Assembly (NCBI GenBank): GCA_051881315.1
Contig: JBJEPQ010000019.1
Coordinates: forward strand, 16,570 to 80,569
Reading direction: 5' to 3'
From: Acutalibacteraceae bacterium
GTDB lineage: Bacteria > Bacillota > Clostridia > Oscillospirales > Acutalibacteraceae
Length of the DNA: 64,000 bases
Position 1 is the first letter of the stretch. Each line of letters begins with the position of its first letter. Under the pieces are notes generated by a model. The model was not told where the DNA came from, did no database searches, and was given only the letters and a program-made list of their open reading frames with translations. The translations under genes and the position numbers were made by a program. This document shows, piece by piece, positions 10,030-27,175 of this stretch.

Positions 10030-10065
10030 TAAAAAAGAACTGCCGTACCAAAATACGACAGTTCT
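10030..10065 (-). terminator. intrinsic terminator of the minus-strand operon
   Basis: agaactgccgta / tacgacagttct stem (one mismatch). On the minus strand it is followed by TTTTTT (plus-strand 10031..10036). Confidence 0.65.
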
Positions 10066-10080
10066 GCGAATGTTTGTTGT

Positions 10081-10887
10081 TTAACCCTGTGCGTATGCAC
10101 CGACCTGCATCATAAAGTCGCCGATCTGTGCGCCGAACTCAGGAGCACCGTCCATGATGAGCTTGCCCTTCTTTGTGGATTCAAGCATATCGTCCGTTGA
10201 AAGGAGAATACCGAATGCGCTTTCAAGGCAATCAAATCTCATGGTGAAGAACGGCATAGCTCTCTTGTAAGTGCCGCGTCCCGCTCTGGTCTTACCTGCC
10301 TTAACACGCAGGAATGCGCTGACCTCGGGATGTCCGTCAACCGCCCATGCATAAACACGGTCGGGGCTCTTCTTTGCCCAGTCGTGAACAGCCTCGTGAC
10401 CGTTCTTGTTGAGCTGGCTGATGCCTGAGGAGAGGAGATAGAAGAAGCACTTGCAGGCGAGAACCTGTGTTGCCTCGTCCTCGGGACAGGCTTTGATATT
10501 AAGAAGAGATGACATCTTGAGAAGAACAGCCATAAAAGCTGCAAACTCAACGGGCTTTTTGAGTACGCCCTTCATCTTCGGCAGAGTCGCAGGAGCGATC
10601 TTACCCTTGAAGAATGCGTTCATCGTCTCCATTGACTTGAACTCAAGCTCAATGTGAGCGTTTGTCGCAACCTTGTCTGCACAGACTTTCCACTCACCGT
10701 TGTTTACGGTGAAATGAGTTGCATACTTGCCGTTCGGAGCATCGGGATCCAATGTACTGACCTGATAGATACAGTGAATATGCTCGAATTTCTTTGCAAT
10801 CTTAGGATCGTCGGTAGCAATAACCTTGAGCAACGGCAATGCAGCGTTAAGGAAGATCTTATTGGTTAACAATACATCATTTGCCAT
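10081..10887 (-). CDS. uncharacterised protein with two SCP2-like halves (paralogue of 14157..14915)
   Basis: The C-terminus DDMLESTKKGKLIMDGAPEFGAQIGDFMMQV and the mid-region ELEFKSMETMNAFFKGKIAPATLPKMKGVLKK resemble the ...GKL.....F..GKLKI.GN... signature of SCP2/sterol-carrier folds. It has the same length and layout as 14157..14915. Start placed at the ATG at 10887 (the ORF track gives a TTG at 10893). Confidence 0.55.
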   Translation of the reverse strand: MANDVLLTNKIFLNAALPLLKVIATDDPKIAKKFEHIHCIYQVSTLDPDAPNGKYATHFTVNNGEWKVCADKVATNAHIELEFKSMETMNAFFKGKIAPATLPKMKGVLKKPVEFAAFMAVLLKMSSLLNIKACPEDEATQVLACKCFFYLLSSGISQLNKNGHEAVHDWAKKSPDRVYAWAVDGHPEVSAFLRVKAGKTRAGRGTYKRAMPFFTMRFDCLESAFGILLSTDDMLESTKKGKLIMDGAPEFGAQIGDFMMQVGAYAQG

Positions 10888-10908
10888 TATCAATCAATCC
10901 TTTCGATA

Positions 10909-11928
10909 TTATACATCGTCGTCCCAGTTATCGTCTTCCTCGAAGTCCTTATTCATTGCTTCACGGACAGCGGCAACGATACCGTTGCAGTCGATGCCGA
11001 TCATGGACATAATGTCCTCATGAAGACCGATAGGAGCGAACTTATCCTGAAGTCCGAGACGTGTGAAAGCACAGCCCTTTCCGGCTTCAGCCATAACCTC
11101 TGCAACAGCAGAGCCGAGACCGCCGATAACGCTGTGATCCTCAACCGTGATTATACGGCGAGTGTCCATAACTGCCTTGAGAACAGCTTCCTTATCAAGA
11201 GGCTTGATGGTGTGCATATCAAGAACACGAACTTTAAGTCCGTCTGCCTGCTCAAGGAACTTAGCTGCCTGGTAAGCCTGGAATACGCAGGATCCGCAAG
11301 CGATAACAGTGATATCTGTACCGGGATTGACCTCGATAGCCTTGCCTACTTCAAACTTGTACTCACGGGGATAATCCTTACCGTAAAGGGTACGGTCAAA
11401 TCCACGGTTGATTCTGATGTAGTAGGGGCCGAAGTTCTCATATGCCGCCTTAACAGCCTCTGCTGTCTCAATACCGTCAGCAGGGCAGATGAGCGTCATA
11501 TTCGGGAGGGAACGGATAACCGCCATATCGCAGATAGCGTGGTGAGTTGAACCCGCCTGACCGAAAGAAGTACCCGAATGGGTGGCTATTGTCTTAACAT
11601 TGATGTTCTGATAGCAGATGTCGGTGTGAATCTGATCTGCCGAACGAAGAGATGCGAAGGTTGAGAAAGTGGAAACAAAGGGAACAAGTCCTGCCTTTGC
11701 CATACCTGCGGCAATACCGAACATATTCTGCTCGGCAATACCTACATTGAAGAAACGGTCAGGAAATTCCTTGCCGAAAACGCCGATCTTGGTAGATCCT
11801 GCAAGGTCTGCCGAAAGTCCAACGATGTCCTTATGCTCACGACCGAGGTCAACAAGTGTCTGGCCGTAGATTTCCGCTGTTGAAAGCTCTGTGGATTCAA
11901 GAGCCGTATATGAAAGTCCGCCTGCCAT
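10909..11928 (-). CDS. transketolase, C-terminal subunit (pyrimidine-binding plus C-terminal domains)
   Basis: 339 aa: IYGQTLVDLGREHKDIVGLSADLAGSTK, FFNVGIAEQNMFGIAAGMA. The start overlaps the upstream stop (TAATG). Confidence 0.9.
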   Translation of the reverse strand: MAGGLSYTALESTELSTAEIYGQTLVDLGREHKDIVGLSADLAGSTKIGVFGKEFPDRFFNVGIAEQNMFGIAAGMAKAGLVPFVSTFSTFASLRSADQIHTDICYQNINVKTIATHSGTSFGQAGSTHHAICDMAVIRSLPNMTLICPADGIETAEAVKAAYENFGPYYIRINRGFDRTLYGKDYPREYKFEVGKAIEVNPGTDITVIACGSCVFQAYQAAKFLEQADGLKVRVLDMHTIKPLDKEAVLKAVMDTRRIITVEDHSVIGGLGSAVAEVMAEAGKGCAFTRLGLQDKFAPIGLHEDIMSMIGIDCNGIVAAVREAMNKDFEEDDNWDDDV

Positions 11929-12797
11929 TATTTTGCCTCCTTTTCTACACGAGCAATACGCTTCTCATAATGCTTTTTAAGGCTTTCCTTAGCCTGATTG
12001 TATTTTTCCTCATCAACTGCGCCGTAGTGCCAATGGTAGTCGCCCTCCATGAAGTCGATACCCTCACCCTTAACGGTGTTGGCAATGATCATAACGGGAG
12101 CGTCGGGCTCGCCGAGAGCGTAGTCGATAGCGTTTGAAAGCTCGTTCATGTTGTGACCGTCAATGTCGAAAACATGGAAGCCGAATGCACGCCACTTGTC
12201 GGCGAAAGGCTCAAGAGGCATAACATCCTCTGTCGGTCCGTCGATCATGCACTTGTTACGGTCAACGAAGGAGATAACGTTGGTTGCGTGGAAAGCGTTT
12301 ATGGACATAGCTGCCTCCCAGTTTGAACCCTCGTCGCACTCGCCGTCGCCGAGAATGCAGTAGGTCTTGTAGCTCTTGCCGAGAACACGGGCGGCAAGAC
12401 CTGTGCCGAGAGCGATTGAAAGTCCGTGGCCGAGTGAACCTGTTGAAGCGTCAACGCCGACAACCTTGTTGGAATCAAGATGGATACCCATCTTTGAGTT
12501 TGTGAGGTTGAAAGTCTTGAGCTGCTCAGGATCGTTGTAACCAAAGTCGCAGAGAACGGGAGCATAAGCGATTCCCGAATGTCCCTTTGAAAGGATAAAG
12601 CGGTCTCTGTCCTCCCAGTTGGGATCGTCAACCTTGATGTTAAGGTACTTGTGGTAGAGAATGGTCATCATATCCATAACGCTCATACCGCCGCCGATGT
12701 GGCCGCTGCCTGCCCAGTATGTAGTGTCAAGGCAGAGGTTACGAAGCTCGAAAGCTTTCTTTTCGAGAGCCAACCATTCCTGTTTGGTCAATGCCAT
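11928..12797 (-). CDS. transketolase, N-terminal (thiamine-diphosphate-binding) subunit
   Basis: 289 aa: AGSGHIGGGMSVMDMMTILY, ILSKGHSGIAYAPV, and the ThDP/metal motif ILGDGECDEGSNWEA. Confidence 0.9.
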   Translation of the reverse strand: MALTKQEWLALEKKAFELRNLCLDTTYWAGSGHIGGGMSVMDMMTILYHKYLNIKVDDPNWEDRDRFILSKGHSGIAYAPVLCDFGYNDPEQLKTFNLTNSKMGIHLDSNKVVGVDASTGSLGHGLSIALGTGLAARVLGKSYKTYCILGDGECDEGSNWEAAMSINAFHATNVISFVDRNKCMIDGPTEDVMPLEPFADKWRAFGFHVFDIDGHNMNELSNAIDYALGEPDAPVMIIANTVKGEGIDFMEGDYHWHYGAVDEEKYNQAKESLKKHYEKRIARVEKEAK

Positions 12798-12839
12798 AAG
12801 AGTTTTCCTCCCTGTTTTTTTATTATTTATCTCAGGCGG

Positions 12840-12868
12840 TAGCTTTCACCGCCTGAGAATAGGTTCTA
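12840..12868 (-). other. perfect 11-bp intercistronic hairpin between the aminotransferase and transketolase genes
   Basis: tctcaggcggt (12840..12850) pairs with accgcctgaga (12858..12868) around a 7-nt loop. On the minus strand it is followed by an A-rich run, not a U-rich one, so it looks like a processing or stability element rather than a canonical terminator. Confidence 0.5.
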
Positions 12869-12876
12869 TGATATTT

Positions 12877-14142
12877 TTAGAATGCTTCCGGATGCTCTTT
12901 CTTAACAACCTTGAATGCCTCGTCGGCAACCTCAAGGGTGTGTTTGATGTCAGCGTCGGAAAGAGCATAGTTGATGAAGTGGTTGTGGTGTCCTGCGAAG
13001 AAGATACCTCTCTTGACGCACTCTGCGATCCATGCCTGATGGAGCATCATTGTGTTGTCGTTTGCAATTCTGAGATAGAAGAGTGCCGGCTCACCGGAAA
13101 CAACGAGATCGAAGCCGTTGTTCTTTCCTGCCTCCTTGAGACCGTCGCAGAGCTTCTGTCCCTTTTCTTTAAGGATAACGGGGAGATTAAGCTCTCTCAT
13201 CTTGGTGATGTTTGCGATACCTGCCGCAAAGGGGATAGCGCTCATCCAGTAAGAACCGGTGTATGACATTCCGGAAACAGCGTCCTTGAGGAAGTCCTTA
13301 CCGCAGAGGCAGGATACGTTCCAGCCGTTTGCGATAGCCTTACAGAAGCAGATCATATCTGCCTCGAAGCCGTAGTAGTGGTCGGAACCTGCAACGTCAA
13401 GACGGAAGCCTGCACGAACGTCGTCAACGATAAGTACGATGCCCTTCTCTGTGCAGAGGTTACGAACCTTCTGCCAGTAACCGTCAGCGGGAAGCTGATT
13501 GTCAAAGTAGTTACCGTGGAGATAAGGAGTTGAGATGAATGCGGCGATCTCGCCCTCATTCTCTGCAACGAGCTTCTCAAGAGCGTCGAAGTCGTTCCAG
13601 TCAACATAGAGATTGTTTGCAACGTCCTCGGGAAGAACGCCCGGATAGTCGATCTTCTGAACGACTGCGGAAACACCGTGATAGAAGCCGTTTACGAAGA
13701 TGATCTTCTTTCTGTGAGTAGCGTTACGGGCAGCCATGATGGCAAGAGTCGTAACGTCGTTACCGTTCTTTGCAAAGAAAGCCCAGTCGGCTGACTTAAC
13801 TGTGTCAACCATAAGCTCTGCAAGCTCAACCATCTTGTAGGACGGGGAGGTGATGCAGTTGCCGGACTTAGCCTGCTCAAGAGCAGCCTTGTCAACATCG
13901 GGATCGTTGTAACCCATGATGTTGGGACCGTATGCACACATATAGTCGATGAATTTATTGCCGTCAACATCCCAGAAGTATGTACCCTTTGCTTTCTCTG
14001 AGAAGAAAGGCCATGCGCTTACGGGAATGAAGTTACCTTCAGCCGGGCCGAGATGACCGTAAACACCTGAAGGGATTACTTTGGTAGCACGGTTGAACCA
14101 TTCACGGCTCTTATCGTACTCATTGATCTTAAAATTTGCCAT
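12877..14142 (-). CDS. class-III (GSA-aminomutase/omega-transaminase-like) PLP-dependent aminotransferase
   Basis: 421 aa: GTYFWDVDGNKFIDYMCAYGPNIMGY, LIVDDVRAGFR, and probable PLP lysine in CFCKAIANG. Substrate unknown. Confidence 0.88.
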   Translation of the reverse strand: MANFKINEYDKSREWFNRATKVIPSGVYGHLGPAEGNFIPVSAWPFFSEKAKGTYFWDVDGNKFIDYMCAYGPNIMGYNDPDVDKAALEQAKSGNCITSPSYKMVELAELMVDTVKSADWAFFAKNGNDVTTLAIMAARNATHRKKIIFVNGFYHGVSAVVQKIDYPGVLPEDVANNLYVDWNDFDALEKLVAENEGEIAAFISTPYLHGNYFDNQLPADGYWQKVRNLCTEKGIVLIVDDVRAGFRLDVAGSDHYYGFEADMICFCKAIANGWNVSCLCGKDFLKDAVSGMSYTGSYWMSAIPFAAGIANITKMRELNLPVILKEKGQKLCDGLKEAGKNNGFDLVVSGEPALFYLRIANDNTMMLHQAWIAECVKRGIFFAGHHNHFINYALSDADIKHTLEVADEAFKVVKKEHPEAF

Positions 14143-14156
14143 TTTTCGTATCCCCC

Positions 14157-14915
14157 TTATGCAAGATAGAGACCGACTCTGTCAAGAATTCGGTTCATAT
14201 TATCGAGCATGTTAATCATGCCGCTCATTGTGATATTGCCTTCGCCGATCTGTGCCATTGCGCTCACCTTACCGTTGAAGAGGTCGTTGGCAAGCTTCAT
14301 GGAACCGAATTCCATAACGGAACGGGGATCTTCGGGAGCTTTTTTGATTGTAACAAGGTGACCGTTCTTTGCGCGGATCGTAGACTTGGGACCGCCCTTA
14401 ATGGACATCATGATGTCGCCGTCTACGATGTGATCTGCGGAGAACTTGCCGATCTTGTCATAGTTACCGATCTGAGAGATAGCAACGGTGATGGTATAGA
14501 ACATAAGCGTTGTGCTCATGTTGAAGAACTCCTCATCCTTGAGATCCTCCTCACTCGGACGCATATATGCTGTGAGGATGTCGGTGAGCTTCGTGAATGT
14601 GTTCAAAAGGAACTTGATATGAATAAAGCCTTTTGAGGGAATGGGTGTGACTGTACCGTCGATAAGACCGTTGAACTTCTCGCATGATGAGAACGGAAGC
14701 TTGATGTCGCAGTCTGTACAACCCTGCTCCATACGGCATCTGCCGTTTTTGAAGGTGATTGTTGCAGACGGGCCGTCCTTAACCTCAAAGCCTACGGAGA
14801 TAGGCTTAATATCAGCTACAAGGGCGCTTGCTTTCGGATCGAGCTCGCACAGGTTTTCAAGTGTGCCGAGCACGGCATACATATTGATGTATGCAAGTGT
14901 TTTTGCATCTGTCAA
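14157..14915 (-). CDS. uncharacterised protein with two SCP2-like halves (paralogue of 10081..10887)
   Basis: The C-terminus ANDLFNGKVSAMAQIGEGNITMSGMINMLDNMNRIL closely follows the SCP2 pattern (compare human SCP2 [35 protein letters not shown]). The N-half FEVKDGPSATITFKNGRCRMEQG...FNGLIDGTVTP follows it too. Start moved to the TTG at 14915, 8 nt after AAGGAGG, because the ORF-track start (14972) lies inside the promoter. Confidence 0.55.
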   Translation of the reverse strand: MTDAKTLAYINMYAVLGTLENLCELDPKASALVADIKPISVGFEVKDGPSATITFKNGRCRMEQGCTDCDIKLPFSSCEKFNGLIDGTVTPIPSKGFIHIKFLLNTFTKLTDILTAYMRPSEEDLKDEEFFNMSTTLMFYTITVAISQIGNYDKIGKFSADHIVDGDIMMSIKGGPKSTIRAKNGHLVTIKKAPEDPRSVMEFGSMKLANDLFNGKVSAMAQIGEGNITMSGMINMLDNMNRILDRVGLYLA

Positions 14916-14962
14916 GGTGCATTCCTCCTTATCGCTTTTATACAAAGCATATTTTCCATAAT

Positions 14963-14991
14963 ATTGTACCAAATAAATCGTTCAAAGTCAA
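14963..14991 (-). promoter_or_regulatory. sigma-A-type promoter of the SCP2/aminotransferase/transketolase operon
   Basis: On the minus strand: TTGACT (14991..14986), 17-nt spacer, TACAAT (14968..14963). Confidence 0.6.
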
Positions 14992-15065
14992 ATGAAATTG
15001 ACAAAAAAACAGCAAAATTTTTTGAACTTATTATTATAATTGTTGCAACATTTTTATCAACTTTG

Positions 15066-18310: not shown

Positions 18311-19765
18311 TTACGCAAAGATGAACAGCAACGCCGAGGAAAGGACAATACAGAAAAGATAGTGCAGTTTGACGGAAACACTGCTTTCAAGACACTCGAA
18401 AAATGCGGTTGTTCCGCCGGCTTCGGGGTGTTCGGAAAGGTATTTCGGAAGTGCTTTTTTTGCTCTGATGACGCAGAGAAATACCGTTTCAAGGAAATAG
18501 GACAGGCAGTACATTATAAAGGTCGATTTATATCCGTAGTTTATACCCGTGACAACAGGCAGTACGCTCAGAATGACCGTCAAAGCTATGCAGATACCTG
18601 TTGCAATTCCCGAATGTTTGTATTTTTCCTGCGGTAATGAAACAAAGCAGAACTCCTCAACTCCCGCCCAAAGCAGAAGTGAGAACGAGGCGAAAATTGC
18701 GGCTTGTTTCGCTCCGAGCAGGCAGAGACACAGTACGCTGTACGAAAACAGAGGTCTGCGGCAAAGGGTGACAAGACGGCTGAATTTTTCGCTCGGATTT
18801 TTAATGCAATGGTGCAGAGCGTCAAGCACAATCAATGCAATCCACACAGCGGAGAGGACGGCGGACAGGTCAAACCGATCTGAATTTTCCGAAAGGGGAG
18901 ACCAAAGCCCTCCGTTAAATTCTATAACACGGTAATAGGAGAAAAGAATGCTTCGGCTTGAAAAGAAGCCGATCAGTATTCCGAGACTGCCGAGTGCGCC
19001 GTAGGAAAACTCCATGATCTTCCAGTTGTCGATTTTTCCTCTTTCCTGAAATTTTCCGAAGAAATACTTGCCGTTCCGTCTCTGAGGAAAAAGGGTATAT
19101 GCGTTGAGAAAGTTGGAAATAAGCCAGCCGACGCTTCCGCTGACCGTTCCGCAGAAAATCAGCTTCAATGAAAAGAAATCGTGACGCAGGATCATAAACC
19201 CGATCATCGTCAGCAGTATTCCCAAAAGTCCGCCCCATTCCTCCTGACTTGTATCGGAAAAATAATAACGCGGAAATATCTTTTTGTCGGGATCAAGCGG
19301 CTTGTTGAAAATACGCACTCCGAGATACCTCATAATCACGGCGATAACAAACATGAGCGGAATGTCTGCCGCTTTGTAATAGCAGCCCGTTGCCGCAGTA
19401 TAGCTCATTCCGATAAATCCGCCGGCGATTCCGAACCACGCCGCTCCCTTTATTCCGAGACCGAGGTTGTGCTTTTTGACATCACGGCGATCTATATATT
19501 TCTCTCCCCAATAAAGCTTCGCCATTGTCTGAGCATACGGCTCTGTTCCGCCCATAAACATTGCGGCGGCACCGACAGCGGCAAAGACGAAGAAATTTTC
19601 TTTTATTATCTCACTGCCCGAAAAAACGGCAAGGCAGAGACCGAGCACCGCACCCGGAAGCATTGCGCCCTCCTCGCCGCCGATGAGGTCACCCCTCATT
19701 CCCCATGCGTAGCTCACAGCCGTCAAGGTGACGGCAAAAGCGATGATAACCGTGAAAGCAGACAT
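18311..19765 (-). CDS. uncharacterised polytopic membrane protein (about 12 hydrophobic segments)
   Basis: 484-aa ORF, hydrophobic throughout (for example FVFAAVGAAAMFMGG, AAWFGIAGGFIGMSY, WGGLLGILLTMIGFMIL). I do not recognise a family. It appears monocistronic. Confidence 0.7.
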   Translation of the reverse strand: MSAFTVIIAFAVTLTAVSYAWGMRGDLIGGEEGAMLPGAVLGLCLAVFSGSEIIKENFFVFAAVGAAAMFMGGTEPYAQTMAKLYWGEKYIDRRDVKKHNLGLGIKGAAWFGIAGGFIGMSYTAATGCYYKAADIPLMFVIAVIMRYLGVRIFNKPLDPDKKIFPRYYFSDTSQEEWGGLLGILLTMIGFMILRHDFFSLKLIFCGTVSGSVGWLISNFLNAYTLFPQRRNGKYFFGKFQERGKIDNWKIMEFSYGALGSLGILIGFFSSRSILFSYYRVIEFNGGLWSPLSENSDRFDLSAVLSAVWIALIVLDALHHCIKNPSEKFSRLVTLCRRPLFSYSVLCLCLLGAKQAAIFASFSLLLWAGVEEFCFVSLPQEKYKHSGIATGICIALTVILSVLPVVTGINYGYKSTFIMYCLSYFLETVFLCVIRAKKALPKYLSEHPEAGGTTAFFECLESSVSVKLHYLFCIVLSSALLFIFA

Positions 19766-20044: not shown

Positions 20045-20086
20045 CCGCATAGAAAATTCGTAAGAATGAACTATGCGGGTTTTTTA
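20045..20086 (+). terminator. intrinsic terminator (attenuator) between the leader peptide and pheA
   Basis: ccgcatag (20045..20052) pairs with ctatgcgg (20071..20078). Inner stem attc-gtaa-gaat. Followed by GTTTTTT. The pheA start is 31 nt downstream. Confidence 0.75.
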
Positions 20087-20116
20087 ATGCAAATTTCTGA
20101 AAACGAGGGATATTCA

Positions 20117-21220
20117 ATGAACGATCTGCAAAACGCAAGAAGAACGATCGAAAAGATTGACGCCGAGATGGCGGAGCTTTTTGAAAAGAGAATGAAAGCG
20201 GCGGAAACTGTCGCTGAATTTAAAAAGGAAAACGCATTGCCCATAGAGGATAAAAAGCGTGAGGCCGAATTGACAGCGAAAAACTGCGAGTTTGTTTCAT
20301 TTGAATACCGTCCGTATTACGAAAGTTTTATCGAAAATGTTATGGACGTTTCCAAAAAGTATCAGAAGCGTCTTCTCGAGGGTATGAGAATTGCATACAG
20401 CGGAGTGGAGGGTGCATTTGCCCACATTGCCGCAATGAGGATCTTCAAATGCGGCGAAGCGGTGTCCTGCCCCGATTTTGACAGCGCATACAAGGCGGTC
20501 GAGGACGGAGAGTGCGACTGTGCCGTTCTGCCGATAGAGAACAGCTACGCCGGTGACGTTGACCGTGTGCTTGACCTTGCTTTCCACGGCAAGCTTTCCG
20601 TTTCGGGTATCTACGATATGCCCCTCGGTCAGAGCTTGCTTGCAAAGCCGGGAACGAATATTGAAGATATCACGGAGGTCAGAAGCCATCCGCAGGCGCT
20701 TTCCCAATGTATGCCTTATCTCAGGGAGCACGGCTGGAAGCTGACTCAGGCAGTCAATACCGCAGTTGCGGCGAAGTCCGTTGCGGAGGGCGAAAGAAAC
20801 GACATCGCCGTCGTAGCCTCCAAGGATGCGGCTGAGCTTTACGGATTGAAGATTTTGCAGGAGGATATTAACGAAAATAAGAAGAACACAACGAGATTTG
20901 CGGTGTTCACAAGGTCTGAATGTAAGGTAACTCCAAAGGACGAGCATTTCCTGATTATGTTCACGACCAAGAATGAACCCGGCTCCCTCGGCGGTGCGAT
21001 CGCCGTTATCGGCGAATACAGGTTTAATCTGAGAAGCCTGAAAAGTCGTCCGACGGGTAATGCGAACTGGGAATACTATTTCTATGCCGAGGGCGAGGGC
21101 AATATCGACTCCCTTGACGGCAGAAAGATGATACACGACTTAAAGAAGCTTTGTGAGAATGTTAAAATTCTCGGCAGCTTTTCGGACGAGAAGATCCTTG
21201 ACGAAAGGAGAGCTATATAA
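20117..21220 (+). CDS. pheA: bifunctional chorismate mutase / prephenate dehydratase (P-protein)
   Basis: The N-terminal AroQ-type chorismate mutase region is RRTIEKIDAEMAELFEKRMKAAETVAEFK. The prephenate dehydratase body is RIAYSGVEGAFAHIAA and NTTRFAVF. The C-terminal ACT region is GSLGGAIAVIGEYRFNLRSLKSRP. ATG at 20117 after GAGGGA. Confidence 0.9.
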   Translation: MNDLQNARRTIEKIDAEMAELFEKRMKAAETVAEFKKENALPIEDKKREAELTAKNCEFVSFEYRPYYESFIENVMDVSKKYQKRLLEGMRIAYSGVEGAFAHIAAMRIFKCGEAVSCPDFDSAYKAVEDGECDCAVLPIENSYAGDVDRVLDLAFHGKLSVSGIYDMPLGQSLLAKPGTNIEDITEVRSHPQALSQCMPYLREHGWKLTQAVNTAVAAKSVAEGERNDIAVVASKDAAELYGLKILQEDINENKKNTTRFAVFTRSECKVTPKDEHFLIMFTTKNEPGSLGGAIAVIGEYRFNLRSLKSRPTGNANWEYYFYAEGEGNIDSLDGRKMIHDLKKLCENVKILGSFSDEKILDERRAI

Positions 21221-22242
21221 TGAGCGTTTTGCATATGGAGCTTGGAGCAAACAGCTATGACATAACCGTTGAACGCGGTGCGCTGAACAGAGCAGGCGAG
21301 CTGTTGAAGCTTGACAGAAAGGTGCTTATAGTGACCGATGACGGCGTACCGAAGGAATATGCCGAAAAAATTGCCTCCTTTTGCGCCGAGCCGTACACGG
21401 TCACTCTCCCGATGGGCGAGCAGAACAAGTGTATGAAAACATATTCCGATCTGCTTGAAGTGATGGTGAAAAACGAATTTGACCGCAATGACTGCGTTGT
21501 AGCCGTCGGAGGCGGAGTGATGGGCGACCTTGCAGGCTTTGTCGCTTCCACCTATATGAGGGGCGTTGACTTCTACAATGTGCCGACAACCCTCCTTTCT
21601 CAGATTGATTCTTCGATCGGCGGCAAGGTTGCCGTGGATTTTGCGGGATATAAAAATCTTGTCGGTGCGTTTTATCAGCCGAAAGCCGTGCTGATAGATC
21701 CGGATGTTCTCTCAACCCTTTCATCAAGGCAGTTTGCCTGCGGAATGGCGGAGGCTGTGAAGATGTTTGCAACCTTTAATGCGGAGATGTTTGAAGCGGT
21801 CGAGAAAAATCCCGACGAGGATATTGATAAGATAATAATTGAAGCACTCAAAATCAAAAGAGATGTTGTCGAAAAGGACGAAAAGGAAAAAGGACTTCGC
21901 AAGGTGCTGAACTTCGGTCACACGGTAGGTCACGCCATAGAGAGCATCGAGGAAAACAGCGATTATCCGCTGTTCCACGGCGAATGTGTGGGCATCGGAA
22001 TGCTCTGCCTGAGCAGTCCCGAGGTCGCAAGACGGCTCAGACACATACTTCACAGAATGGATATTCCGACCTCCTGGAGAGGCGGCGAGGAAGAGCTGAA
22101 AGCGGCTATGCTCCACGACAAGAAAGCCAAGGGCGACAGGATAACGGTCATAACGGTGGACACAATCGGAACCTTTAAAGAGGAAAAGCTGACGGTCGAT
22201 GAGATCGTAAAACGATGTGAGGAGGTGCTTGTGCTGTCATGA
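21220..22242 (+). CDS. aroB: 3-dehydroquinate synthase
   Basis: 340 aa: VAVGGGVMGDLAGFVASTYMRGVDFYNVPTTLLSQIDSSIGGKVAVD, NFGHTVGHAIE. Confidence 0.92.
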   Translation: MSVLHMELGANSYDITVERGALNRAGELLKLDRKVLIVTDDGVPKEYAEKIASFCAEPYTVTLPMGEQNKCMKTYSDLLEVMVKNEFDRNDCVVAVGGGVMGDLAGFVASTYMRGVDFYNVPTTLLSQIDSSIGGKVAVDFAGYKNLVGAFYQPKAVLIDPDVLSTLSSRQFACGMAEAVKMFATFNAEMFEAVEKNPDEDIDKIIIEALKIKRDVVEKDEKEKGLRKVLNFGHTVGHAIESIEENSDYPLFHGECVGIGMLCLSSPEVARRLRHILHRMDIPTSWRGGEEELKAAMLHDKKAKGDRITVITVDTIGTFKEEKLTVDEIVKRCEEVLVLS

Positions 22243-23330
22243 AGAATACATTCGGAAACGTGCTTACGGTAACTCTGTTCGGCGAGAGCCACGGCGAAGC
22301 TATCGGAGCGGTGATAGACGGCATAGCTCCCGGAGTGAAGATAGACAGGGATTATATTGATACAAAAATGGCTCTGCGCAGACCGAGCGGAAAAATTTCG
22401 ACCGCTCGAAGTGAAAAGGACGAGATCGTTTTTGAAAGCGGAGTTTATGAGGGACACACAACCGGTACGCCGATCTGTATGGTTATCAAAAATGCCGACA
22501 CTCACAGCTCGGATTATTCCTCCCTTGCAGGCAAGGCGAGACCGGGACACGCCGATTTTCCTGCGTTTTGCAAGTATCACGGCTTTGAGGACGCAAGGGG
22601 CGGCGGTCATTTCAGCGGCAGAATTACTGCGGCTCTCGTTGCCGCAGGCGCAATAGTTCAAAGTGCGCTGAAAGAAAAAGGAATTGTCATCGGTACACAC
22701 ATCAGCCGCCTTGCAGGTATCAGCGACAGCAAAATGAACCCGACGGAAGATGTTGAAAGACTTGAAAATTTGGAGTTTCCGCTTGTTGACGGAAGCCTTG
22801 AGGAAAAGATGAAAGCGGCAATTATGCAGGCGAGAACAGAGGGCGACAGCGTCGGAGGAATCCTTGAAACGGCTGTTGTCGGTATGCCTGCCGGGGTGGG
22901 CGAGCCGTGGTTCGACACGGTTGAAAGCCTGCTTTCCCATGCGCTTTTCTCCGTTCCGGCGGTCAAGGGAGTTGAGTTCGGAGACGGCTTTGCCCTTGCC
23001 GATATGAGGGGAAGCGAGTCCAATGACGCTTACCGTGTTGATGAAAGCGGAAGGATAATCACCGAAACCAACAGCAACGGCGGAATAGGCGGAGGCATAA
23101 CGAACGGTCAGCCGATAGTTTTCCGCTGTGCCGTCAAGCCGACTCCGTCGATAGTCAAGAAGCAGGACACGGTCGATTTTGTCAATGTATGCAATACGGA
23201 AATTGCCATAAAGGGCAGGCACGATCCCTGCATAGTTCACCGTGCGAGAGCGGTTGTTGACGCCGTAACTGCGCTTACTCTGGCGGATATGCTCAGTTTG
23301 AGATACGGCACGGACTGGCTTGCGAGGTAA
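22239..23330 (+). CDS. aroC: chorismate synthase
   Basis: MKNTFGNVLTVTLFGESHGEAIGAVIDGIAPG, RPGHADF, GGGHFSGRITA, GRHDPCIV. Confidence 0.95.
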   Translation: MKNTFGNVLTVTLFGESHGEAIGAVIDGIAPGVKIDRDYIDTKMALRRPSGKISTARSEKDEIVFESGVYEGHTTGTPICMVIKNADTHSSDYSSLAGKARPGHADFPAFCKYHGFEDARGGGHFSGRITAALVAAGAIVQSALKEKGIVIGTHISRLAGISDSKMNPTEDVERLENLEFPLVDGSLEEKMKAAIMQARTEGDSVGGILETAVVGMPAGVGEPWFDTVESLLSHALFSVPAVKGVEFGDGFALADMRGSESNDAYRVDESGRIITETNSNGGIGGGITNGQPIVFRCAVKPTPSIVKKQDTVDFVNVCNTEIAIKGRHDPCIVHRARAVVDAVTALTLADMLSLRYGTDWLAR

Positions 23331-23334
23331 CGGT

Positions 23335-24594
23335 ATGGAGTACGGATGTATCGGTAAAAAACTCGGTCACAGCTTTTCGGCTGTCATTCACGCAAAGCTC
23401 GGCGATTACGATTATCGGCTTGTTGAGCTGACGGAGGACGAGCTGACCGAATTTATGAATAAAAAGGATTTTAAAGGCATCAACGTTACGATACCTTATA
23501 AGGAGACGGTAATTCCGTTCCTCGATCATATAGATGTTTCGGCACGTCGGATAGGAGCGGTAAACACGATCGTCAATGAAAACGGCGTACTGACAGGCTA
23601 CAACACCGATTTTTACGGAATGACGCAGTTACTGAAAAAGGGCGGCATTGATGTTGACGGAAAGAGCGTTTACATTCTCGGAACGGGCGGCACGTCAAAA
23701 ACGGCAAGAGCAGTTGCGGCGTCACTCGGAGCAAAGGAGATTTACGTTGTTTCGAGAACTCCGAAAAACGGTGAGATCTCTTATGATGATATGTATGCGA
23801 ACGCAGAGAACGTCGAGGTTATCATCAACACCACGCCTGTCGGAATGTTCCCCAAGCCCGATGCTTCGGCGGTCGAGCCGTCACAATTTCCCAATCTCAG
23901 CGGAGCGGCGGACGCAGTTTACAATCCGCTGACGACTGAATTTATTCGGAAAGCCCAAAATTGCAAAGCGAACGCCGTAAACGGTCTTTATATGCTTGTC
24001 GCTCAGGCGGCAAGGGCGGCGGAGCTGTTTTTTAACGACAAAACCATGACTTCAAAAACCGATGAAGTTTTTGCCGAAATATATAAAGAAAAGCTCAATG
24101 TTGTGCTTATCGGTATGCCCGGAAGCGGTAAGACCACGATCGGTAAGCTCGTTGCAAAAAGCCTCGGCAGAGAGTTTTACGACACAGACGAGGTGTTTGT
24201 GGCAGAGGAGCAAACGACAATTTCCGATTACTTTGCATCGCATACCGAGAAGGATTTCCGTGACAGGGAAAGCGAGATTGTCGCAAGTCTCGGAGCGAAG
24301 AACTCCCTTGTCATCGCCACGGGCGGAGGTGCAGTCCTCAGAGAGGAGAATGTAAGACATCTCAAACAAAACGGAGTGATCTTCTTCCTTGACCGTGATG
24401 TTGAAAACATTGTTCCGACCTCGGACAGACCTCTCGGCAGCAGCAGGGAAGCGATAGAAAAAAGATACCGTGAACGCTATCCGATCTATTGCTCGGCGGC
24501 GGATATAAAGCTTGACTCCAATTCCTGCGTTGAGACGGTCGCCGCAAACCTTGCCGAAGAATTTATCAGCTTTTGCCGAAAGGAGCAGTTATGA
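23335..24594 (+). CDS. aroE: fused shikimate dehydrogenase (N-terminal) / shikimate kinase (C-terminal)
   Basis: The N-terminal part has GINVTIPYKETVIPFLD and GAVNTIV (AroE). The C-terminal part has LIGMPGSGKTTIGKLVAKSLGREFYDTDEV and ATGGGAV (AroK). It is one continuous ORF with no internal stop. ATG at 23335 after GAGG. Confidence 0.85.
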   Translation: MEYGCIGKKLGHSFSAVIHAKLGDYDYRLVELTEDELTEFMNKKDFKGINVTIPYKETVIPFLDHIDVSARRIGAVNTIVNENGVLTGYNTDFYGMTQLLKKGGIDVDGKSVYILGTGGTSKTARAVAASLGAKEIYVVSRTPKNGEISYDDMYANAENVEVIINTTPVGMFPKPDASAVEPSQFPNLSGAADAVYNPLTTEFIRKAQNCKANAVNGLYMLVAQAARAAELFFNDKTMTSKTDEVFAEIYKEKLNVVLIGMPGSGKTTIGKLVAKSLGREFYDTDEVFVAEEQTTISDYFASHTEKDFRDRESEIVASLGAKNSLVIATGGGAVLREENVRHLKQNGVIFFLDRDVENIVPTSDRPLGSSREAIEKRYRERYPIYCSAADIKLDSNSCVETVAANLAEEFISFCRKEQL

Positions 24595-25013
24595 AGATAT
24601 TAGTTATTAACGGACCGAATTTGAATATGCTCGGCATCAGAGAGCCTGATATCTACGGCAGAGAAACATATTCGGATCTGCTGGAGAAGATAAAACGTCA
24701 CGCTGACAAAAAGGAAATCGAGGTTGAGTTTTTCCAGTCCAATCATGAGGGCAGCATCGTAGATAAAATTCAGGAGGCATACGGGAAAATCGACGGTATT
24801 GTCTTAAATCCCGGCGCCTACACCCACACGAGCGTTGCCATTCCCGACGCATTGAAGGCTGTCGGAATACCGACCGTTGAGGTGCACATTTCCGATGTTG
24901 ACACCCGTGAGGAATTTCGTCAGATCAGCTATGTCCGACCGTGCTGTGTTGCGTGCGTCAAGGGGCATGGGACGGACGGCTACTGCGAAGCGATAGATAT
25001 TCTGATCGGCTGA
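24591..25013 (+). CDS. aroQ: type II 3-dehydroquinate dehydratase
   Basis: [23 protein letters not shown]...[16 protein letters not shown]...[13 protein letters not shown]...VEVHISD. The ATG overlaps the preceding stop (ATGA). Confidence 0.93.
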   Translation: [140 protein letters not shown]

Positions 25014-25019
25014 AATTGT

Positions 25020-25054
25020 CCACAGCACATTTTTCGCTCGGGGCAGTAACCTTT
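25020..25054. repeat. 35-nt copy of a dispersed intergenic element (also at 50134..50168)
   Basis: ccacagcacatttttcgctcggggcagtaaccttt versus ccacggcacatttttcgttcggggcagtaccttt at 50135..50168 (two substitutions and one indel). It lies in the 70-nt aroQ-aroA spacer. Confidence 0.7.
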
Positions 25055-25083
25055 AAAAGACTCAACCAAAAGGATTGGTAAGC

Positions 25084-26295
25084 ATGAATGTAACAATAAA
25101 AACGGGGACGGCGTCGGGTGAGGTGAAAATACCCTCGTCCAAGAGCGTTGCCCACCGTTTGCTGATAAATGCCGCCTTGACCGACGGCAAAACCGTACTC
25201 GAAGATCTTTCTTTGAACGAGGACATCAGCGCAACGATTGACTGCCTGAGGGTTCTCGGAGCAAGGATCGAATTGCCGCAGGCGGGTATATGCGAGGTCA
25301 CGGGAGCTTCGGAAAAGACTGTTGACGGGGTGCGCAGACTTTATTGCAGAGAGAGCGGAAGCACGCTTAGGTTTATGCTTCCTCTTTGTCTCGACGGAGT
25401 GAAAACGGAGCTTTACGGCTCGCCGAGGCTCATCGAAAGACCTCACTCCGTTTACCGTGAAATCTGCGAAAAGAACGGCTTTCTCTGGCAGTCTGACGGT
25501 GAGAAAATAACCGTACAGGGAAAACTGACGGCAGGAATATATGAAATCCCCGGTAACATCAGCAGTCAGTTTATTACCGGACTTATGCTGAGCTTGCCGA
25601 CGCTTGAAAAGGACAGCGTTATCAGGCTGACGACCGAGCCTGAAAGCCTTTCCTATATTGAAATGACGGTCAATTCCCTCGCCGAGTTCGGAATAAAAAT
25701 CGAGAAACGCTCCGACCGTGAGTGGTATATCGTGGGCGGACAGACGAGAAAAACTCCGAACAAAATCAGCGTTGAAGCCGACGAATCGGGAGCGGCTTTC
25801 TTTGCGGCTCTGAACTTTATCGGCGGCGATGTAAAGCTTAATAATCTCAACGAAAACAGCCGTCAGGGCGACAGGGTTTGGAGATCGCTTTTTCCCTTGC
25901 TTTCGGACGGAAAACCCGAAATCTCAATCAAGGACTGTCCCGATCTCGGACCGATACTGATGTCGCTTGCCGCCTGTCTCAACGGTGCGGTGCTGACCGA
26001 CACGGCAAGACTTAGAATAAAGGAGAGCGACAGGGGAGAGGCGATGGCGCAGGAGCTTGCAAAATCGGGCGTTAAGGTCAAGGTGGACGAAAACCGTATA
26101 ACGGTCGATCCTGCGGATATTCATGCTCCCACGGAAGCTTTGGACGGTCATAACGACCACAGAATAGTGATGTCGCTGGCAGTCCTGCTGACAAAATACG
26201 GCGGAACAATAAAAGGAGCCGAAGCCGTGGCGAAAAGTATGCCGCAGTTTTTTGAAATGCTCAGGTCAATAGGTATAGATACAGAAGAAGGTTAA
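25084..26295 (+). CDS. aroA: 3-phosphoshikimate 1-carboxyvinyltransferase (EPSP synthase)
   Basis: IPSSKSVAHRLLINAAL, CRESGSTLRF, DHRIVMSLAV. Start placed at the ATG at 25084 (the ORF track gives a TTG at 25075). Confidence 0.92.
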   Translation: MNVTIKTGTASGEVKIPSSKSVAHRLLINAALTDGKTVLEDLSLNEDISATIDCLRVLGARIELPQAGICEVTGASEKTVDGVRRLYCRESGSTLRFMLPLCLDGVKTELYGSPRLIERPHSVYREICEKNGFLWQSDGEKITVQGKLTAGIYEIPGNISSQFITGLMLSLPTLEKDSVIRLTTEPESLSYIEMTVNSLAEFGIKIEKRSDREWYIVGGQTRKTPNKISVEADESGAAFFAALNFIGGDVKLNNLNENSRQGDRVWRSLFPLLSDGKPEISIKDCPDLGPILMSLAACLNGAVLTDTARLRIKESDRGEAMAQELAKSGVKVKVDENRITVDPADIHAPTEALDGHNDHRIVMSLAVLLTKYGGTIKGAEAVAKSMPQFFEMLRSIGIDTEEG

Positions 26296-26296
26296 T

Positions 26297-27172
26297 ATGA
26301 AAAGGATTGATTCAGACACAAAGGTGCTGATCGTAGGTCTCGGTCTTATCGGAGGAAGCTACGCAAAGGCATTGACAAAAAAAGGCTGTAAGGTCAGGGC
26401 GATAACCCGTAAAGACAGCGATATTGAATATTCCGTCAAAGAGGGATTTATCGAGGACGGTACAACGGCGGTGACAAAGGAATATCTCGCATGGGCGGAT
26501 ATTATCGTCTTTTCACTCTATCCGCACACGTTGCTCGAATGGCTGAAAAAATACGCAGGTCTTATTAAAAAAGGTACGGTTTGCACCGATGTTACGGGTG
26601 TTAAAAGCTGTATAGTTTATGACGCTCAGGCTCTTATGCCCGACGGAGTGGAGTTTATTGCCGCTCACCCGATGGCAGGCCGTGAAAGAAGCGGCGTCCG
26701 TCACAGCGACGATTCCGTTTTCAAAGGAGCAAACTATATTGTTGTTCCGACAGATAATAACACACCCGAAGCGGTCGAATACTGCAAACAGCTCGGAGAA
26801 GCGCTTGGCTTTTACCGTATCAGCGTGCTTGACCCCGAATCGCACGACAGGATGATAGCTTTCCTGTCTCAGCTTACCCACTGCATTGCCGTTTCGCTGA
26901 TGTGTACGAACGACACACCAGGCTTTGAGGCTTACACGGGTGACTCGTTCAGGGATCTTACAAGGATCGCAAAGATCAACGGAGAAATGTGGAGCGAGCT
27001 TTTTATCAGCAATAAGCAGTTCCTACTCGACGAGATGGATAATTTTATAAATCAGTTTACACTTCTGCGCGATATGCTTGAAAATGAAGATAAAGAGGGT
27101 ATGTGCAGAATGATGCAAATATCAACACAGCGCAGAGAAAAATTTGATAAACCCAAAGTAAAGGAAGGCTAA
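26297..27172 (+). CDS. tyrA: prephenate dehydrogenase
   Basis: Rossmann motif VGLGLIGGSYAKAL, then AAHPMAGRERSG and DRMIAFLSQLTH. Confidence 0.88.
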   Translation: MKRIDSDTKVLIVGLGLIGGSYAKALTKKGCKVRAITRKDSDIEYSVKEGFIEDGTTAVTKEYLAWADIIVFSLYPHTLLEWLKKYAGLIKKGTVCTDVTGVKSCIVYDAQALMPDGVEFIAAHPMAGRERSGVRHSDDSVFKGANYIVVPTDNNTPEAVEYCKQLGEALGFYRISVLDPESHDRMIAFLSQLTHCIAVSLMCTNDTPGFEAYTGDSFRDLTRIAKINGEMWSELFISNKQFLLDEMDNFINQFTLLRDMLENEDKEGMCRMMQISTQRREKFDKPKVKEG

Positions 27173-27175
27173 TCT

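Follow-up and report, generated by a model that had tools for sequence, protein, structure and literature searches.

FumI, an aminotransferase of Sphingopyxis sp. MTA144, takes the C2 amine off hydrolysed fumonisin B1, which is a long-chain 2-amino-3-hydroxy polyol and a mimic of sphinganine, with pyruvate as the preferred amino acceptor; the authors likened C1–C5 of its α-hydroxyketone product to a 'simplified ketose structure' (PMC3136697). In Carboxydothermus hydrogenoformans, transketolase is present in split form only, and archaea either lack the enzyme or have it split (PMC7661550). Here, these and related systems are compared with a five-gene module on the minus strand of a 64,000-nucleotide stretch of DNA from an Acutalibacteraceae bacterium (GenBank assembly GCA_051881315.1, contig JBJEPQ010000019.1, positions 16,570 to 80,569), referred to throughout as the window. 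The module is predicted to encode a double-SCP2 protein (A), a class-III aminotransferase dependent on pyridoxal 5′-phosphate (PLP), the N- and C-terminal subunits of a thiamine diphosphate (ThDP)-dependent transketolase (TK-N and TK-C), and a second double-SCP2 protein (E).

An earlier note on the window, made from the sequence, knew of no characterised pathway with a transaminase, a C2-ketol transferase and two putative carriers of hydrophobic ligands. A natural pairing of transketolase and aminotransferase had already been described in the anisomycin cluster, in which the transketolase-family protein AniP makes an α-hydroxyketone that is then aminated by the aminotransferase AniQ (PMC11387542). 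AniP, a single protein of 603 aa, takes aromatic 2-oxo acids as donors, is always accompanied by the dehydrogenase AniN, lacks SCP2 partners, and belongs to the secondary metabolism of Streptomyces, Chromobacterium and Pseudomonas (PMC11387542). The module, with its split transketolase and with no AniN-like short-chain dehydrogenase conserved nearby in the 160 loci compared here, falls outside the AniP/AniQ/AniN type. Likewise, neither the sugar isomerase, reductase and transporter of the SqwGH and AptAB contexts nor the 3-amino-5-hydroxybenzoate (AHBA)/aminoshikimate context of Rif15AB is conserved in these 160 loci, so that the module is set apart from those systems by gene context. Engineered E. 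coli transketolases (D469A/T/S) and transketolase–transaminase cascades are a further parallel, with the same residue changed and the same logic leading from an aldehyde to a 2-amino-1,3-diol (PMC3657141, PMC5073344, PMC5813273, PMC8719814). These are laboratory constructs acting on C2–C8 or aromatic aldehydes, whereas the module is natural, is found in many hundreds of species and includes putative lipid-carrier proteins. In the C-terminal domain of SdsA1 and in UbiJ of the ubiquinone metabolon, an SCP2 domain helps an enzyme to handle an alkyl or polyprenyl substrate; A and E differ in being free-standing double-SCP2 proteins of ~250 aa, with a sequence family of their own. No paper was found in literature searches on transketolase with sphingoid bases, on split transketolase, or on split transketolase together with an aminotransferase, and none describing the module in those on bacterial sphingoid-base degradation. 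The module is not described in the curated family libraries (Pfam and NCBIfam) either, which agrees with the earlier view that no characterised pathway matches.

The core chemistry proposed here is the interconversion of a hydrophobic aldehyde plus a C2 ketol, a 1,3-dihydroxy-2-ketone, and a 2-amino-1,3-diol. No other chemistry employs all parts of the module. The 2-amino-1,3-diol is the head group of sphingoid bases, and it is possible, as a tentative reading, that the module breaks down or detoxifies sphingoid-type long-chain bases, with the ThDP and PLP enzymes acting on a lipid amino alcohol held by SCP2 carriers. The module itself and the SCP2 folds are secure, the core chemistry is put forward with moderate confidence, and confidence in the identity of the substrate and in the direction is low to moderate.

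The five-gene module and its conservation

The five genes make up a single unit, with an internal hairpin as well as a promoter and a terminator.

14157..14915, minus strand: gene A, tandem-SCP2 protein of 252 aa, with a TTG start and the ribosome-binding site AAGGAGG at 14930..14924
12877..14142, minus strand: gene B, putative class-III FumI-like PLP aminotransferase of 421 aa, with the PLP lysine K268 in the motif CKAIANG
11928..12797, minus strand: gene C, predicted N-terminal (PP-domain) subunit of transketolase, TK-N, of 289 aa, with the variant motifs GHIG, IHL, LGHG and WHY
10909..11928, minus strand: gene D, predicted C-terminal subunit of transketolase, TK-C (Pyr and TKC), of 339 aa
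10081..10887, minus strand: gene E, tandem-SCP2 paralogue of A, of 268 aa
14963..14991, minus strand: promoter-like site TTGACT-17-TACAAT, 10/12 matches, with a TG extension before the -10 hexamer
15033..15060, minus strand: second promoter-like site TTGATA-16-TATAAT, 11/12 matches, better than the site at 14963..14991
12840..12868, minus strand: intercistronic 11-bp GC-rich hairpin in the spacer between gene B and TK-N, with an A-rich run after the stem and no U-tract
10030..10065, minus strand: strong intrinsic terminator, with a 13-bp stem (10065..10036) followed by TTTTTT

The promoter at 14963..14991, the terminator and the hairpin had all been proposed earlier and were found as described. 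The better-matching site at 15033..15060 lies between gene A and the preceding gene, for a PF05636 HIGH_NTase1 nucleotidyltransferase. The ATG of TK-C overlaps the stop codon of TK-N by one base (TAATG); this overlap, also noted before, is seen in the open reading frames (ORFs). The mechanical ORF of gene A extends to 14972. Its start was set at the TTG at 14915 based on the ribosome-binding site and on the length of 252 aa seen in nearly all homologues.

A one-genome-per-species scan returned at least 549 stretches that encode a relative of A, and the best 80 of these at least 549 loci were analysed. They are mostly from Acutalibacteraceae, Oscillospiraceae and unclassified Clostridia, as metagenome-assembled genomes (MAGs) from human and animal guts. 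The order A, aminotransferase, TK-N, TK-C, E is kept in every sufficiently long locus among these 80 Oscillospirales genomes, with the five proteins 64–97 % identical to their window counterparts. The window's own flanks, which are the HIGH_NTase1 nucleotidyltransferase and polynucleotide phosphorylase (PNPase) genes, are mostly missing from the 80 gut loci, and any one flanking gene family is shared by at most 18 of them. The exact aminotransferase sequence was found on gut-metagenome contigs, including from pig gut, with an identical neighbourhood, and a locus 99 % identical to that of the window (L007) is from an Acutalibacteraceae MAG.

An environmental set of 80 metagenome loci (sediment, hypersaline mat, sludge and marine) was fetched with four members 31–34 % identical to A. 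These loci range in GC content from 33 % to 65 %, and their proteins are 30–39 % (A), 47–55 % (aminotransferase), 51–64 % (transketolase) and 33–40 % (E) identical to those of the window. The five-gene order is present in all sufficiently long loci except for seven with an E1 variant, described below, and L104, where A and the aminotransferase have no ThDP enzyme nearby; the contig of L137 stops too soon after the aminotransferase to tell. In both the gut and the environmental sets, A is always immediately upstream of the aminotransferase. Fortuitous adjacency clearly fails as an explanation, since the flanks vary around a constant five-gene order, and the earlier proposal that the five genes are co-conserved as one unit is borne out in the gut genomes and in most environmental loci. 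The sole recurrent neighbour in the environmental set is a TetR-family regulator gene, which adjoins the module in 10 loci; these regulators match those of FumI-like plasmid loci in the helix-turn-helix only.

The FumI-like aminotransferase

The earlier placement of gene B in the GSA-aminomutase/ω-transaminase group (GSA, glutamate 1-semialdehyde) is upheld. The protein matches Pfam Aminotran_3 (PF00202, E 3.8e-38) and is predicted to be a class-III (fold type I) PLP aminotransferase. Against all PDB sequences its best match is FumI (6HBS, E 3.6e-82), with GSA aminomutases at 2e-47 or weaker, and the pairwise comparison with FumI gives 37 % identity over 400 residues (E 1e-92). Assignment as HemL (GSA 2,1-aminomutase) was rejected, the protein scoring below every NCBIfam HemL cut-off (TIGR00713, 201 bits against 527.3; NF000818, 228.6 against 398) and FumI being a far better match than the GSA aminomutase structures. 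K268 corresponds to the lysine of FumI in the alignment and does not vary among 54 environmental orthologues, and the Schiff-base lysine motif K-A-(I/M/L)-(A/G)-N-G-(Y/W/H) is conserved among the orthologues.

Gene B and FumI have in common the class-III PLP fold and the lysine motif K-x-x-A-N-G-(Y/W), but at 37 % identity they are non-orthologous, and FumI belongs to a catabolic cluster of proteobacteria. The curated libraries have no family model for this type of enzyme, and gene B is described here, by similarity, as a putative FumI-type long-chain amino-alcohol aminotransferase.

A relative of FumI, 62 % identical to it, is encoded on the Novosphingobium capsulatum plasmid NZ_CP140001.1 (L167, 567661-586806). 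Its flanks are class II aldolase and carbohydrate kinase genes and not transketolase or SCP2 genes, and TetR, cytochrome P450, aldehyde dehydrogenase, TonB receptor and GDSL esterase genes are also nearby. These genes suggest a catabolic cluster of fumonisin or sphingoid type, where deamination would be followed by kinase and aldolase steps.

The split transketolase

TK-N matches Transketolase_N (E 1.9e-44), and TK-C matches Transket_pyr (E 3e-43) and Transketolase_C (E 1e-27). For both halves the best solved match is the split enzyme of C. hydrogenoformans (6YAJ/6YAK, E 2e-65 and 8.8e-79), with which the module enzyme shares the two-gene architecture, the cofactor motif, E418 and the catalytic histidines. 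Residues were read from alignments to 6YAK, 6YAJ and human transketolase and are given in yeast numbering. The GDG...N metal/ThDP motif, E418, H30, H69, H103, H263, H469 and H481 are kept, and the cofactor and catalytic residues are invariant in 64–72 gut and 29–33 environmental orthologues. TK-N and TK-C are therefore predicted to make up a transketolase of the ThDP-dependent transketolase-like superfamily.

The differences from the C. hydrogenoformans and canonical enzymes, apart from the aminotransferase and SCP2 genes that always flank the module enzyme, are three substitutions in TK-C (R359 to Ala18, E476 to Gln124 and D477 to Ala125) and four motif changes (GHPG to GHIG, GHP to IHL, LGQG to LGHG and WHG to WHY). 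All are essentially invariant in 64–72 gut orthologues. Position 477 is Ala in 65 of 65 gut orthologues and, among 29 environmental ones, Ala in 27 and Gly in two. At position 359, Ala or Ser is present in 66 of 66 gut orthologues, and environmental orthologues have Ala (22 out of 31) or Arg (the other 9). Position 476 is Gln, Ser, Ala, Thr or Pro. More widely, the orthologue motifs are GH(I/V)G, (I/M)HL, LGHG and WHY, and the neighbouring motifs are more hydrophobic. S386, H469 and R528 are kept and are invariant even in distant environmental orthologues; retention of the phosphate ligands suggests that the other substrate is still a sugar phosphate.

In the yeast and E. coli enzymes, D477 (D469 in E. 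coli) hydrogen-bonds the C2 hydroxyl of the acceptor aldose. Directed evolution of the E. coli enzyme yielded D469A and D469T, with better activity on propionaldehyde only (PMC3657141), and D469 variants also admit aromatic aldehydes (PMC3657141, PMC5073344). With D477 lost and R359 usually lost, the module enzyme does not have the full set of residues of a canonical sugar-phosphate transketolase (EC 2.2.1.1). It also stays below the NCBIfam transketolase equivalog cut-offs, a full-length threshold that a half-length split subunit cannot reach anyway. The subfamily has lost the residue that defines a sugar acceptor while retaining the dihydroxyethyl-ThDP machinery and a partial phosphate site. 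The split itself had been taken earlier as the sign of a specialised role. This does not hold for C. hydrogenoformans, in which the split enzyme is the only one, or for archaea (PMC7661550); it is the active-site signature, and not the split, that would mark specialisation here.

A complete canonical shikimate/aromatic operon is present in the window at 20066..28204, 10–18 kb from the module, with genes for chorismate mutase/prephenate dehydratase, 3-dehydroquinate (DHQ) synthase, chorismate synthase, shikimate dehydrogenase-kinase, 5-enolpyruvylshikimate 3-phosphate (EPSP) synthase, prephenate dehydrogenase and 3-deoxy-D-arabino-heptulosonate 7-phosphate (DAHP) synthase. The organism thus needs erythrose 4-phosphate, and presumably a canonical second transketolase is encoded elsewhere in the genome. 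A Rif15-like role in an aminoshikimate route was rejected, because the operon in the window is canonical, with a DAHP synthase gene, and because the shikimate genes are unlinked to the module in other genomes.

That lack of linkage also speaks against the transketolase being the pentose-phosphate enzyme itself, supplying erythrose 4-phosphate to the nearby operon beside genes that are unrelated or an aminotransferase that is HemL. Such an account would draw on the full shikimate operon with its DAHP synthase gene, and on the precedent of a split transketolase as sole housekeeping enzyme (PMC7661550). It does not explain why the five-gene order is kept, with changing flanks, down to 30 % identity of A, or why Asp is never found at the position that senses the 2-hydroxyl of a sugar and one of the phosphate-binding Arg residues is mostly missing. 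The aminotransferase does match HemL models, but at 201 bits against a cut-off of 527.3, with FumI a much better match. This account is largely refuted and is now highly improbable.

Loci with an E1 fusion

In seven environmental loci (L099, L100, L103, L112, L115, L135 and L136), A and the aminotransferase are followed by a convergent gene for an 850–890-aa protein, which replaces transketolase and E (12106-14709 in L112 and 12386-15058 in L136). The protein has the E1 alpha (E1_dh, E 2e-80) and E1 beta (Transket_pyr and Transketolase_C) parts of a pyruvate dehydrogenase (PDH)-type enzyme, and an extra N-terminal domain of ~135–220 aa. In two sequences this domain has a weak near-full-length match to Pfam SCP2 (E 0.003 and 0.001); it matches the A family by hhalign (E 2.9e-4), and its best PDB profile match, nearly end to end, is a Yarrowia SCP2 fatty-acid-binding protein (E 0.023). 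The domain is a probable SCP2 domain, and its fusion to E1 would physically tie SCP2 to the ThDP enzyme. No E gene is found in these seven loci, and A is present.

The exchange of transketolase for E1 points to an α-hydroxyketone as the common intermediate. The conserved core of the module may thus be an SCP2 carrier, a FumI-like aminotransferase and a ThDP enzyme that makes or breaks an α-hydroxyketone, the transketolase version handling a hydroxymethyl ketone and the E1 version a methyl (1-deoxy) ketone.

SCP2 proteins A and E

Both outer proteins had been read as tandem SCP2 folds, and structure prediction agrees. AlphaFold (AF2) models built on family alignments (A, pLDDT 93.2 and pTM 0.90; E, pLDDT 89.8 and pTM 0.87) have a common duplicated α/β topology. 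In Foldseek searches of the PDB, the top matches of both models are SCP2-type domains only, with a probability of 1.00 and TM-scores of ~0.5–0.7 per target domain. These are the C-terminal SCP2-like domains of the alkylsulfatases SdsA1, Pisa1 and YjcS, UbiJ-SCP2, and carriers of sterols or fatty acids; SdsA1 structures have been solved with 1-dodecanol or 1-decanesulfonate. From the models, A and E can confidently be assigned double SCP2 lipid-binding folds.

At the sequence level the family is more elusive. The Pfam SCP2 match of A is borderline (21.5 bits, cut-off 21.3), and E has no match in Pfam or NCBIfam. A and E align over their full length as distant paralogues (21 % identity, E 2e-5), in agreement with the paralogy proposed before. 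A HMMER scan of 1.84 billion representatives gave an A family of ~250-aa proteins in 497 clusters at 50 % identity, reaching down to 28 % identity. Few positions in this broad family are near-invariant, and none resembles a catalytic set, which fits binding proteins and not enzymes. Names given to A and E homologues at source, where present, are 'hypothetical protein' and, once, 'SCP2 sterol-binding domain-containing protein'; a profile search for distant annotated homologues of A returned close orthologues alone. A could be the lipid carrier that serves the aminotransferase and E the one that serves the ThDP enzyme, a pairing suggested by the fact that A is kept and E is missing exactly where the SCP2-bearing E1 replaces transketolase.

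In one strain otherwise 99–100 % identical to the window (L001:13262-13995), E can be aligned only to about residue 210 of 268, no gene is called in the E region, and pnp is ~200 bp nearer. Either E is naturally truncated in this strain or the assembly is at fault.

The folds also bear on whether the aldehyde is a lipid. It could instead be a small one that lacks a 2-hydroxyl, such as acetaldehyde, propanal, butanal, phenylacetaldehyde, 2-deoxyribose 5-phosphate or a semialdehyde acid, from which a small amino-diol is made or into which it is degraded, with the SCP2 folds acting as scaffolds, aldehyde chaperones or regulatory subunits. The change of D477 to Ala says only that the acceptor has no 2-hydroxyl. 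Changes at D469 of the E. coli enzyme raise its activity on propanal and on aromatic aldehydes (PMC3657141, PMC5073344), phenylacetaldehyde is a substrate of the split enzyme of C. hydrogenoformans (PMC7661550), AniP and AniQ are a natural pair acting on aromatic or small substrates (PMC11387542), and the invariant S386 and R528 could hold an anionic tail. Two dedicated double-SCP2 proteins, and a probable SCP2 domain on the alternative ThDP enzyme, are nevertheless hard to reconcile with such a substrate, their best structural matches being proteins that bind alkyl chains, fatty acids, sterols or polyprenyl quinones. The aminotransferase also resembles FumI, a lipid-amine enzyme, far more than it does small-molecule aminotransferases. 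SNF, TRAP and MFS solute transporter genes do adjoin some of the variant loci, but they vary by locus and are unconserved. A non-lipid aldehyde is considered unlikely. The earlier suggestion of an amphiphilic or sugar-like substrate is strengthened in its first part, by the FumI match and the loss of D477, and weakened in its second.

Proposed pathway and direction

For breakdown of a sphingoid-type base, the following steps are proposed. Carrier A would extract the long-chain base from the membrane, and the FumI-like aminotransferase would transfer the C2 amino group to a 2-oxo acid, e.g. pyruvate, leaving a ketose-like lipid. The variant transketolase would then split the C2–C3 bond of the lipid presented by carrier E, hand the glycolaldehyde unit over to an aldose phosphate, e.g. 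glyceraldehyde 3-phosphate, and release a fatty aldehyde. In the variant module, the PDH-type E1 with its fused probable SCP2 domain would do the equivalent job on 1-deoxy (methyl-ketone) analogues. The end points, a C2-N head derived from serine with a fatty chain, or a fatty aldehyde with a C2 fragment, would be the same as those of serine palmitoyltransferase with 3-ketosphinganine reductase, and of sphingosine kinase with sphingosine-1-phosphate lyase. The likeness to these is one of analogy, with the keto group at C2 and not C3, ThDP instead of PLP for the carbon–carbon chemistry, no acyl-CoA and no phosphorylation.

The direction leans towards breakdown and is not settled. Guts and sediments are rich in long-chain bases, and these are toxic to Gram-positive bacteria. 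Thermodynamically, aminotransferases of this kind run easily towards deamination when pyruvate is the acceptor, which favours breakdown, as do the catabolic role of FumI, the nearest characterised aminotransferase, and the TetR genes that adjoin the module in 10 environmental loci. The retained phosphate ligands, which suggest C2 exchange with sugar phosphates, and the FumI relative of L167, whose position between aldolase and kinase genes suggests deamination followed by sugar-type carbon–carbon cleavage, favour it too.

Several observations weigh against breakdown of these lipids. The module is conserved on a par with PNPase and its promoter looks constitutive, as expected of core metabolism rather than of accessory detoxification. 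In the gut lineages, the module has no conserved companion gene for an aldehyde dehydrogenase or reductase, a transporter or a regulator, so that the earlier statement that there is no regulator or transporter remains true there and gives way in the 10 environmental loci with TetR. No E2 or E3 gene is found next to the E1 fusion in the variant loci, which suits decarboxylative synthesis better than cleavage, and the SNF (L112), TRAP DctM/DctP (L115) and MFS (L136) transporters beside it may point to soluble substrates. The scores that identify the N-terminal domain of E1 as SCP2 are weak (E 1e-3 to 2e-2). There is also the question of stereochemistry: transketolases normally handle 3S ketols, natural D-erythro sphingoid bases are 3R, and fumonisins are 3S. 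Ordinary sphinganine may therefore not fit unless the stereochemistry of this subfamily differs, a difficulty that applies to synthesis as well.

Run in reverse, the same chemistry would make sphingoid-type bases independently of serine palmitoyltransferase, from serine and a fatty aldehyde to a 2-amino-1,3-diol and CO2. L-Serine would be converted to hydroxypyruvate by the aminotransferase as the amino-donor step, and hydroxypyruvate would be decarboxylated by transketolase, with the C2 ketol joined to an SCP2-held fatty aldehyde. The resulting 1,3-dihydroxy-2-ketone would be aminated by the same aminotransferase. With E1, alanine and pyruvate would lead to 1-deoxy bases. A closed two-enzyme cycle of this kind explains why only these genes are co-conserved, as no kinase, isomerase or further enzyme is needed; the swap of transketolase for a PDH-type E1 becomes one of hydroxypyruvate for pyruvate (Ser for Ala), and an E1 with no E2 or E3 nearby suits decarboxylative carboligation. 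It is also in keeping with the housekeeping-level conservation, the strong promoter and the lack of a regulator in gut lineages, and with the preference of FumI for the pyruvate/alanine pair (PMC3136697). Cascades of serine aminotransferase and transketolase, driven by loss of CO2, run in vitro (PMC8719814, PMC5813273, PMC7661550).

Other observations weigh against synthesis. In the ~160 loci there is no conserved nearby acyl reductase that forms an aldehyde, N-acyltransferase (ceramide synthase) or head-group enzyme. The invariant phosphate ligands S386 and R528 are unexpected with a hydroxypyruvate donor, the closest characterised aminotransferase is catabolic, and free long-chain bases are toxic. 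Sphingoid lipids are not known to have been reported from these Clostridia, and a targeted literature search found nothing. Synthesis is thus thought rather unlikely. The wider proposition, that strict anaerobes including many gut Oscillospirales make sphingoid bases by a closed ThDP/PLP cycle with double-SCP2 channelling, as a second independent origin, is quite doubtful. Breakdown of sphingoid-type bases is retained as the tentative reading.

The spacer between the aminotransferase and TK-N

Because an A-rich run stands in place of a U-tract, the 11-bp hairpin (12840..12868) was rejected as a canonical terminator. Close relatives have a hairpin at the same position in the spacer with different stem sequences, and many other lineages have none. 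A role in mRNA stability, processing or attenuation is probable, with the hairpin dividing the unit into two sub-modules, A with the aminotransferase and transketolase with E.

In one Oscillospiraceae clade (L034:12029-12296, L035, L037, L039, L044, L047, L055 and L065), the spacer is 240–260 nt long. It contains a true terminator right after the aminotransferase gene, then an AT-rich stretch, and then a conserved leader with the invariant sequence GAAGCTTTGTGAT...TCACTCAGAyGAT; in a stem, UUUUCU pairs with the AGGAGG ribosome-binding site of TK-N. The long spacers matched no Rfam family, and the leader may be a new cis-regulatory element for the TK-N/TK-C/E sub-operon. A hairpin in the window's clade, or a terminator and leader in the Oscillospiraceae clade, at this position agrees with the picture of two sub-modules.

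Other genes near the module

The commonest neighbour in the gut loci is a gene for a methylthioadenosine/S-adenosylhomocysteine (MTA/SAH) nucleosidase-like (Pfs-like) protein, directly upstream in 18 of the 80 and ~180 bp from gene A (e.g. L082:8614-9363). It was identified by eye from the sequence and is probably a matter of lineage synteny; an enzyme of this type would also give 5-deoxyribose-type products. In eight gut loci (L041:6298-7797 and L042:5203-6426, also L048, L051, L056, L074 and L076), a second class-III GSA-aminomutase-like aminotransferase of 499 aa and a 407-aa protein that resembles, as judged by eye, a double class II aldolase/adducin are encoded 2–3.6 kb upstream of the module. 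Class II aldolase genes flank the FumI-like genes of L167 as well, and the pair may be a related or alternative cleavage system.

In the window, a 484-aa ORF at 18311..19765 on the minus strand has many hydrophobic stretches and no Pfam match. Among the near-identical strains L001–L006 its called length is 462–516 aa, and in L006 it is split in two. A fast-evolving membrane protein is one possibility and a pseudogenising gene another.

Significance

The enzyme families of the module are already known. What is new is the conserved combination of genes, the natural remodelling of the acceptor site, the double-SCP2 family and the pathway that these imply. The module is present in at least 549 stretches, with one genome per species, and in anaerobes of sediment, hypersaline and sludge environments, and two of its five proteins have been annotated only as hypothetical.

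If the module is degradative, it would give Gram-positive anaerobes of the gut a new means of disarming and salvaging antimicrobial sphingoid bases from the diet, the host and Bacteroides, with the C2 head fed into sugar phosphates, and would be a lead for the anaerobic detoxification of fumonisin-type toxins. If it is synthetic, it would make sphingoid bases by a route that bypasses serine palmitoyltransferase, as the natural equivalent of the laboratory transketolase–transaminase cascade, and the way in which sphingolipid potential is read from genomes would change. In either direction, a natural transketolase adapted to acceptors that lack a 2-hydroxyl, together with its partner aminotransferase, would be of interest for biocatalysis, and A and E would belong to a large new double-SCP2 family that apparently serves soluble enzymes acting on lipids.

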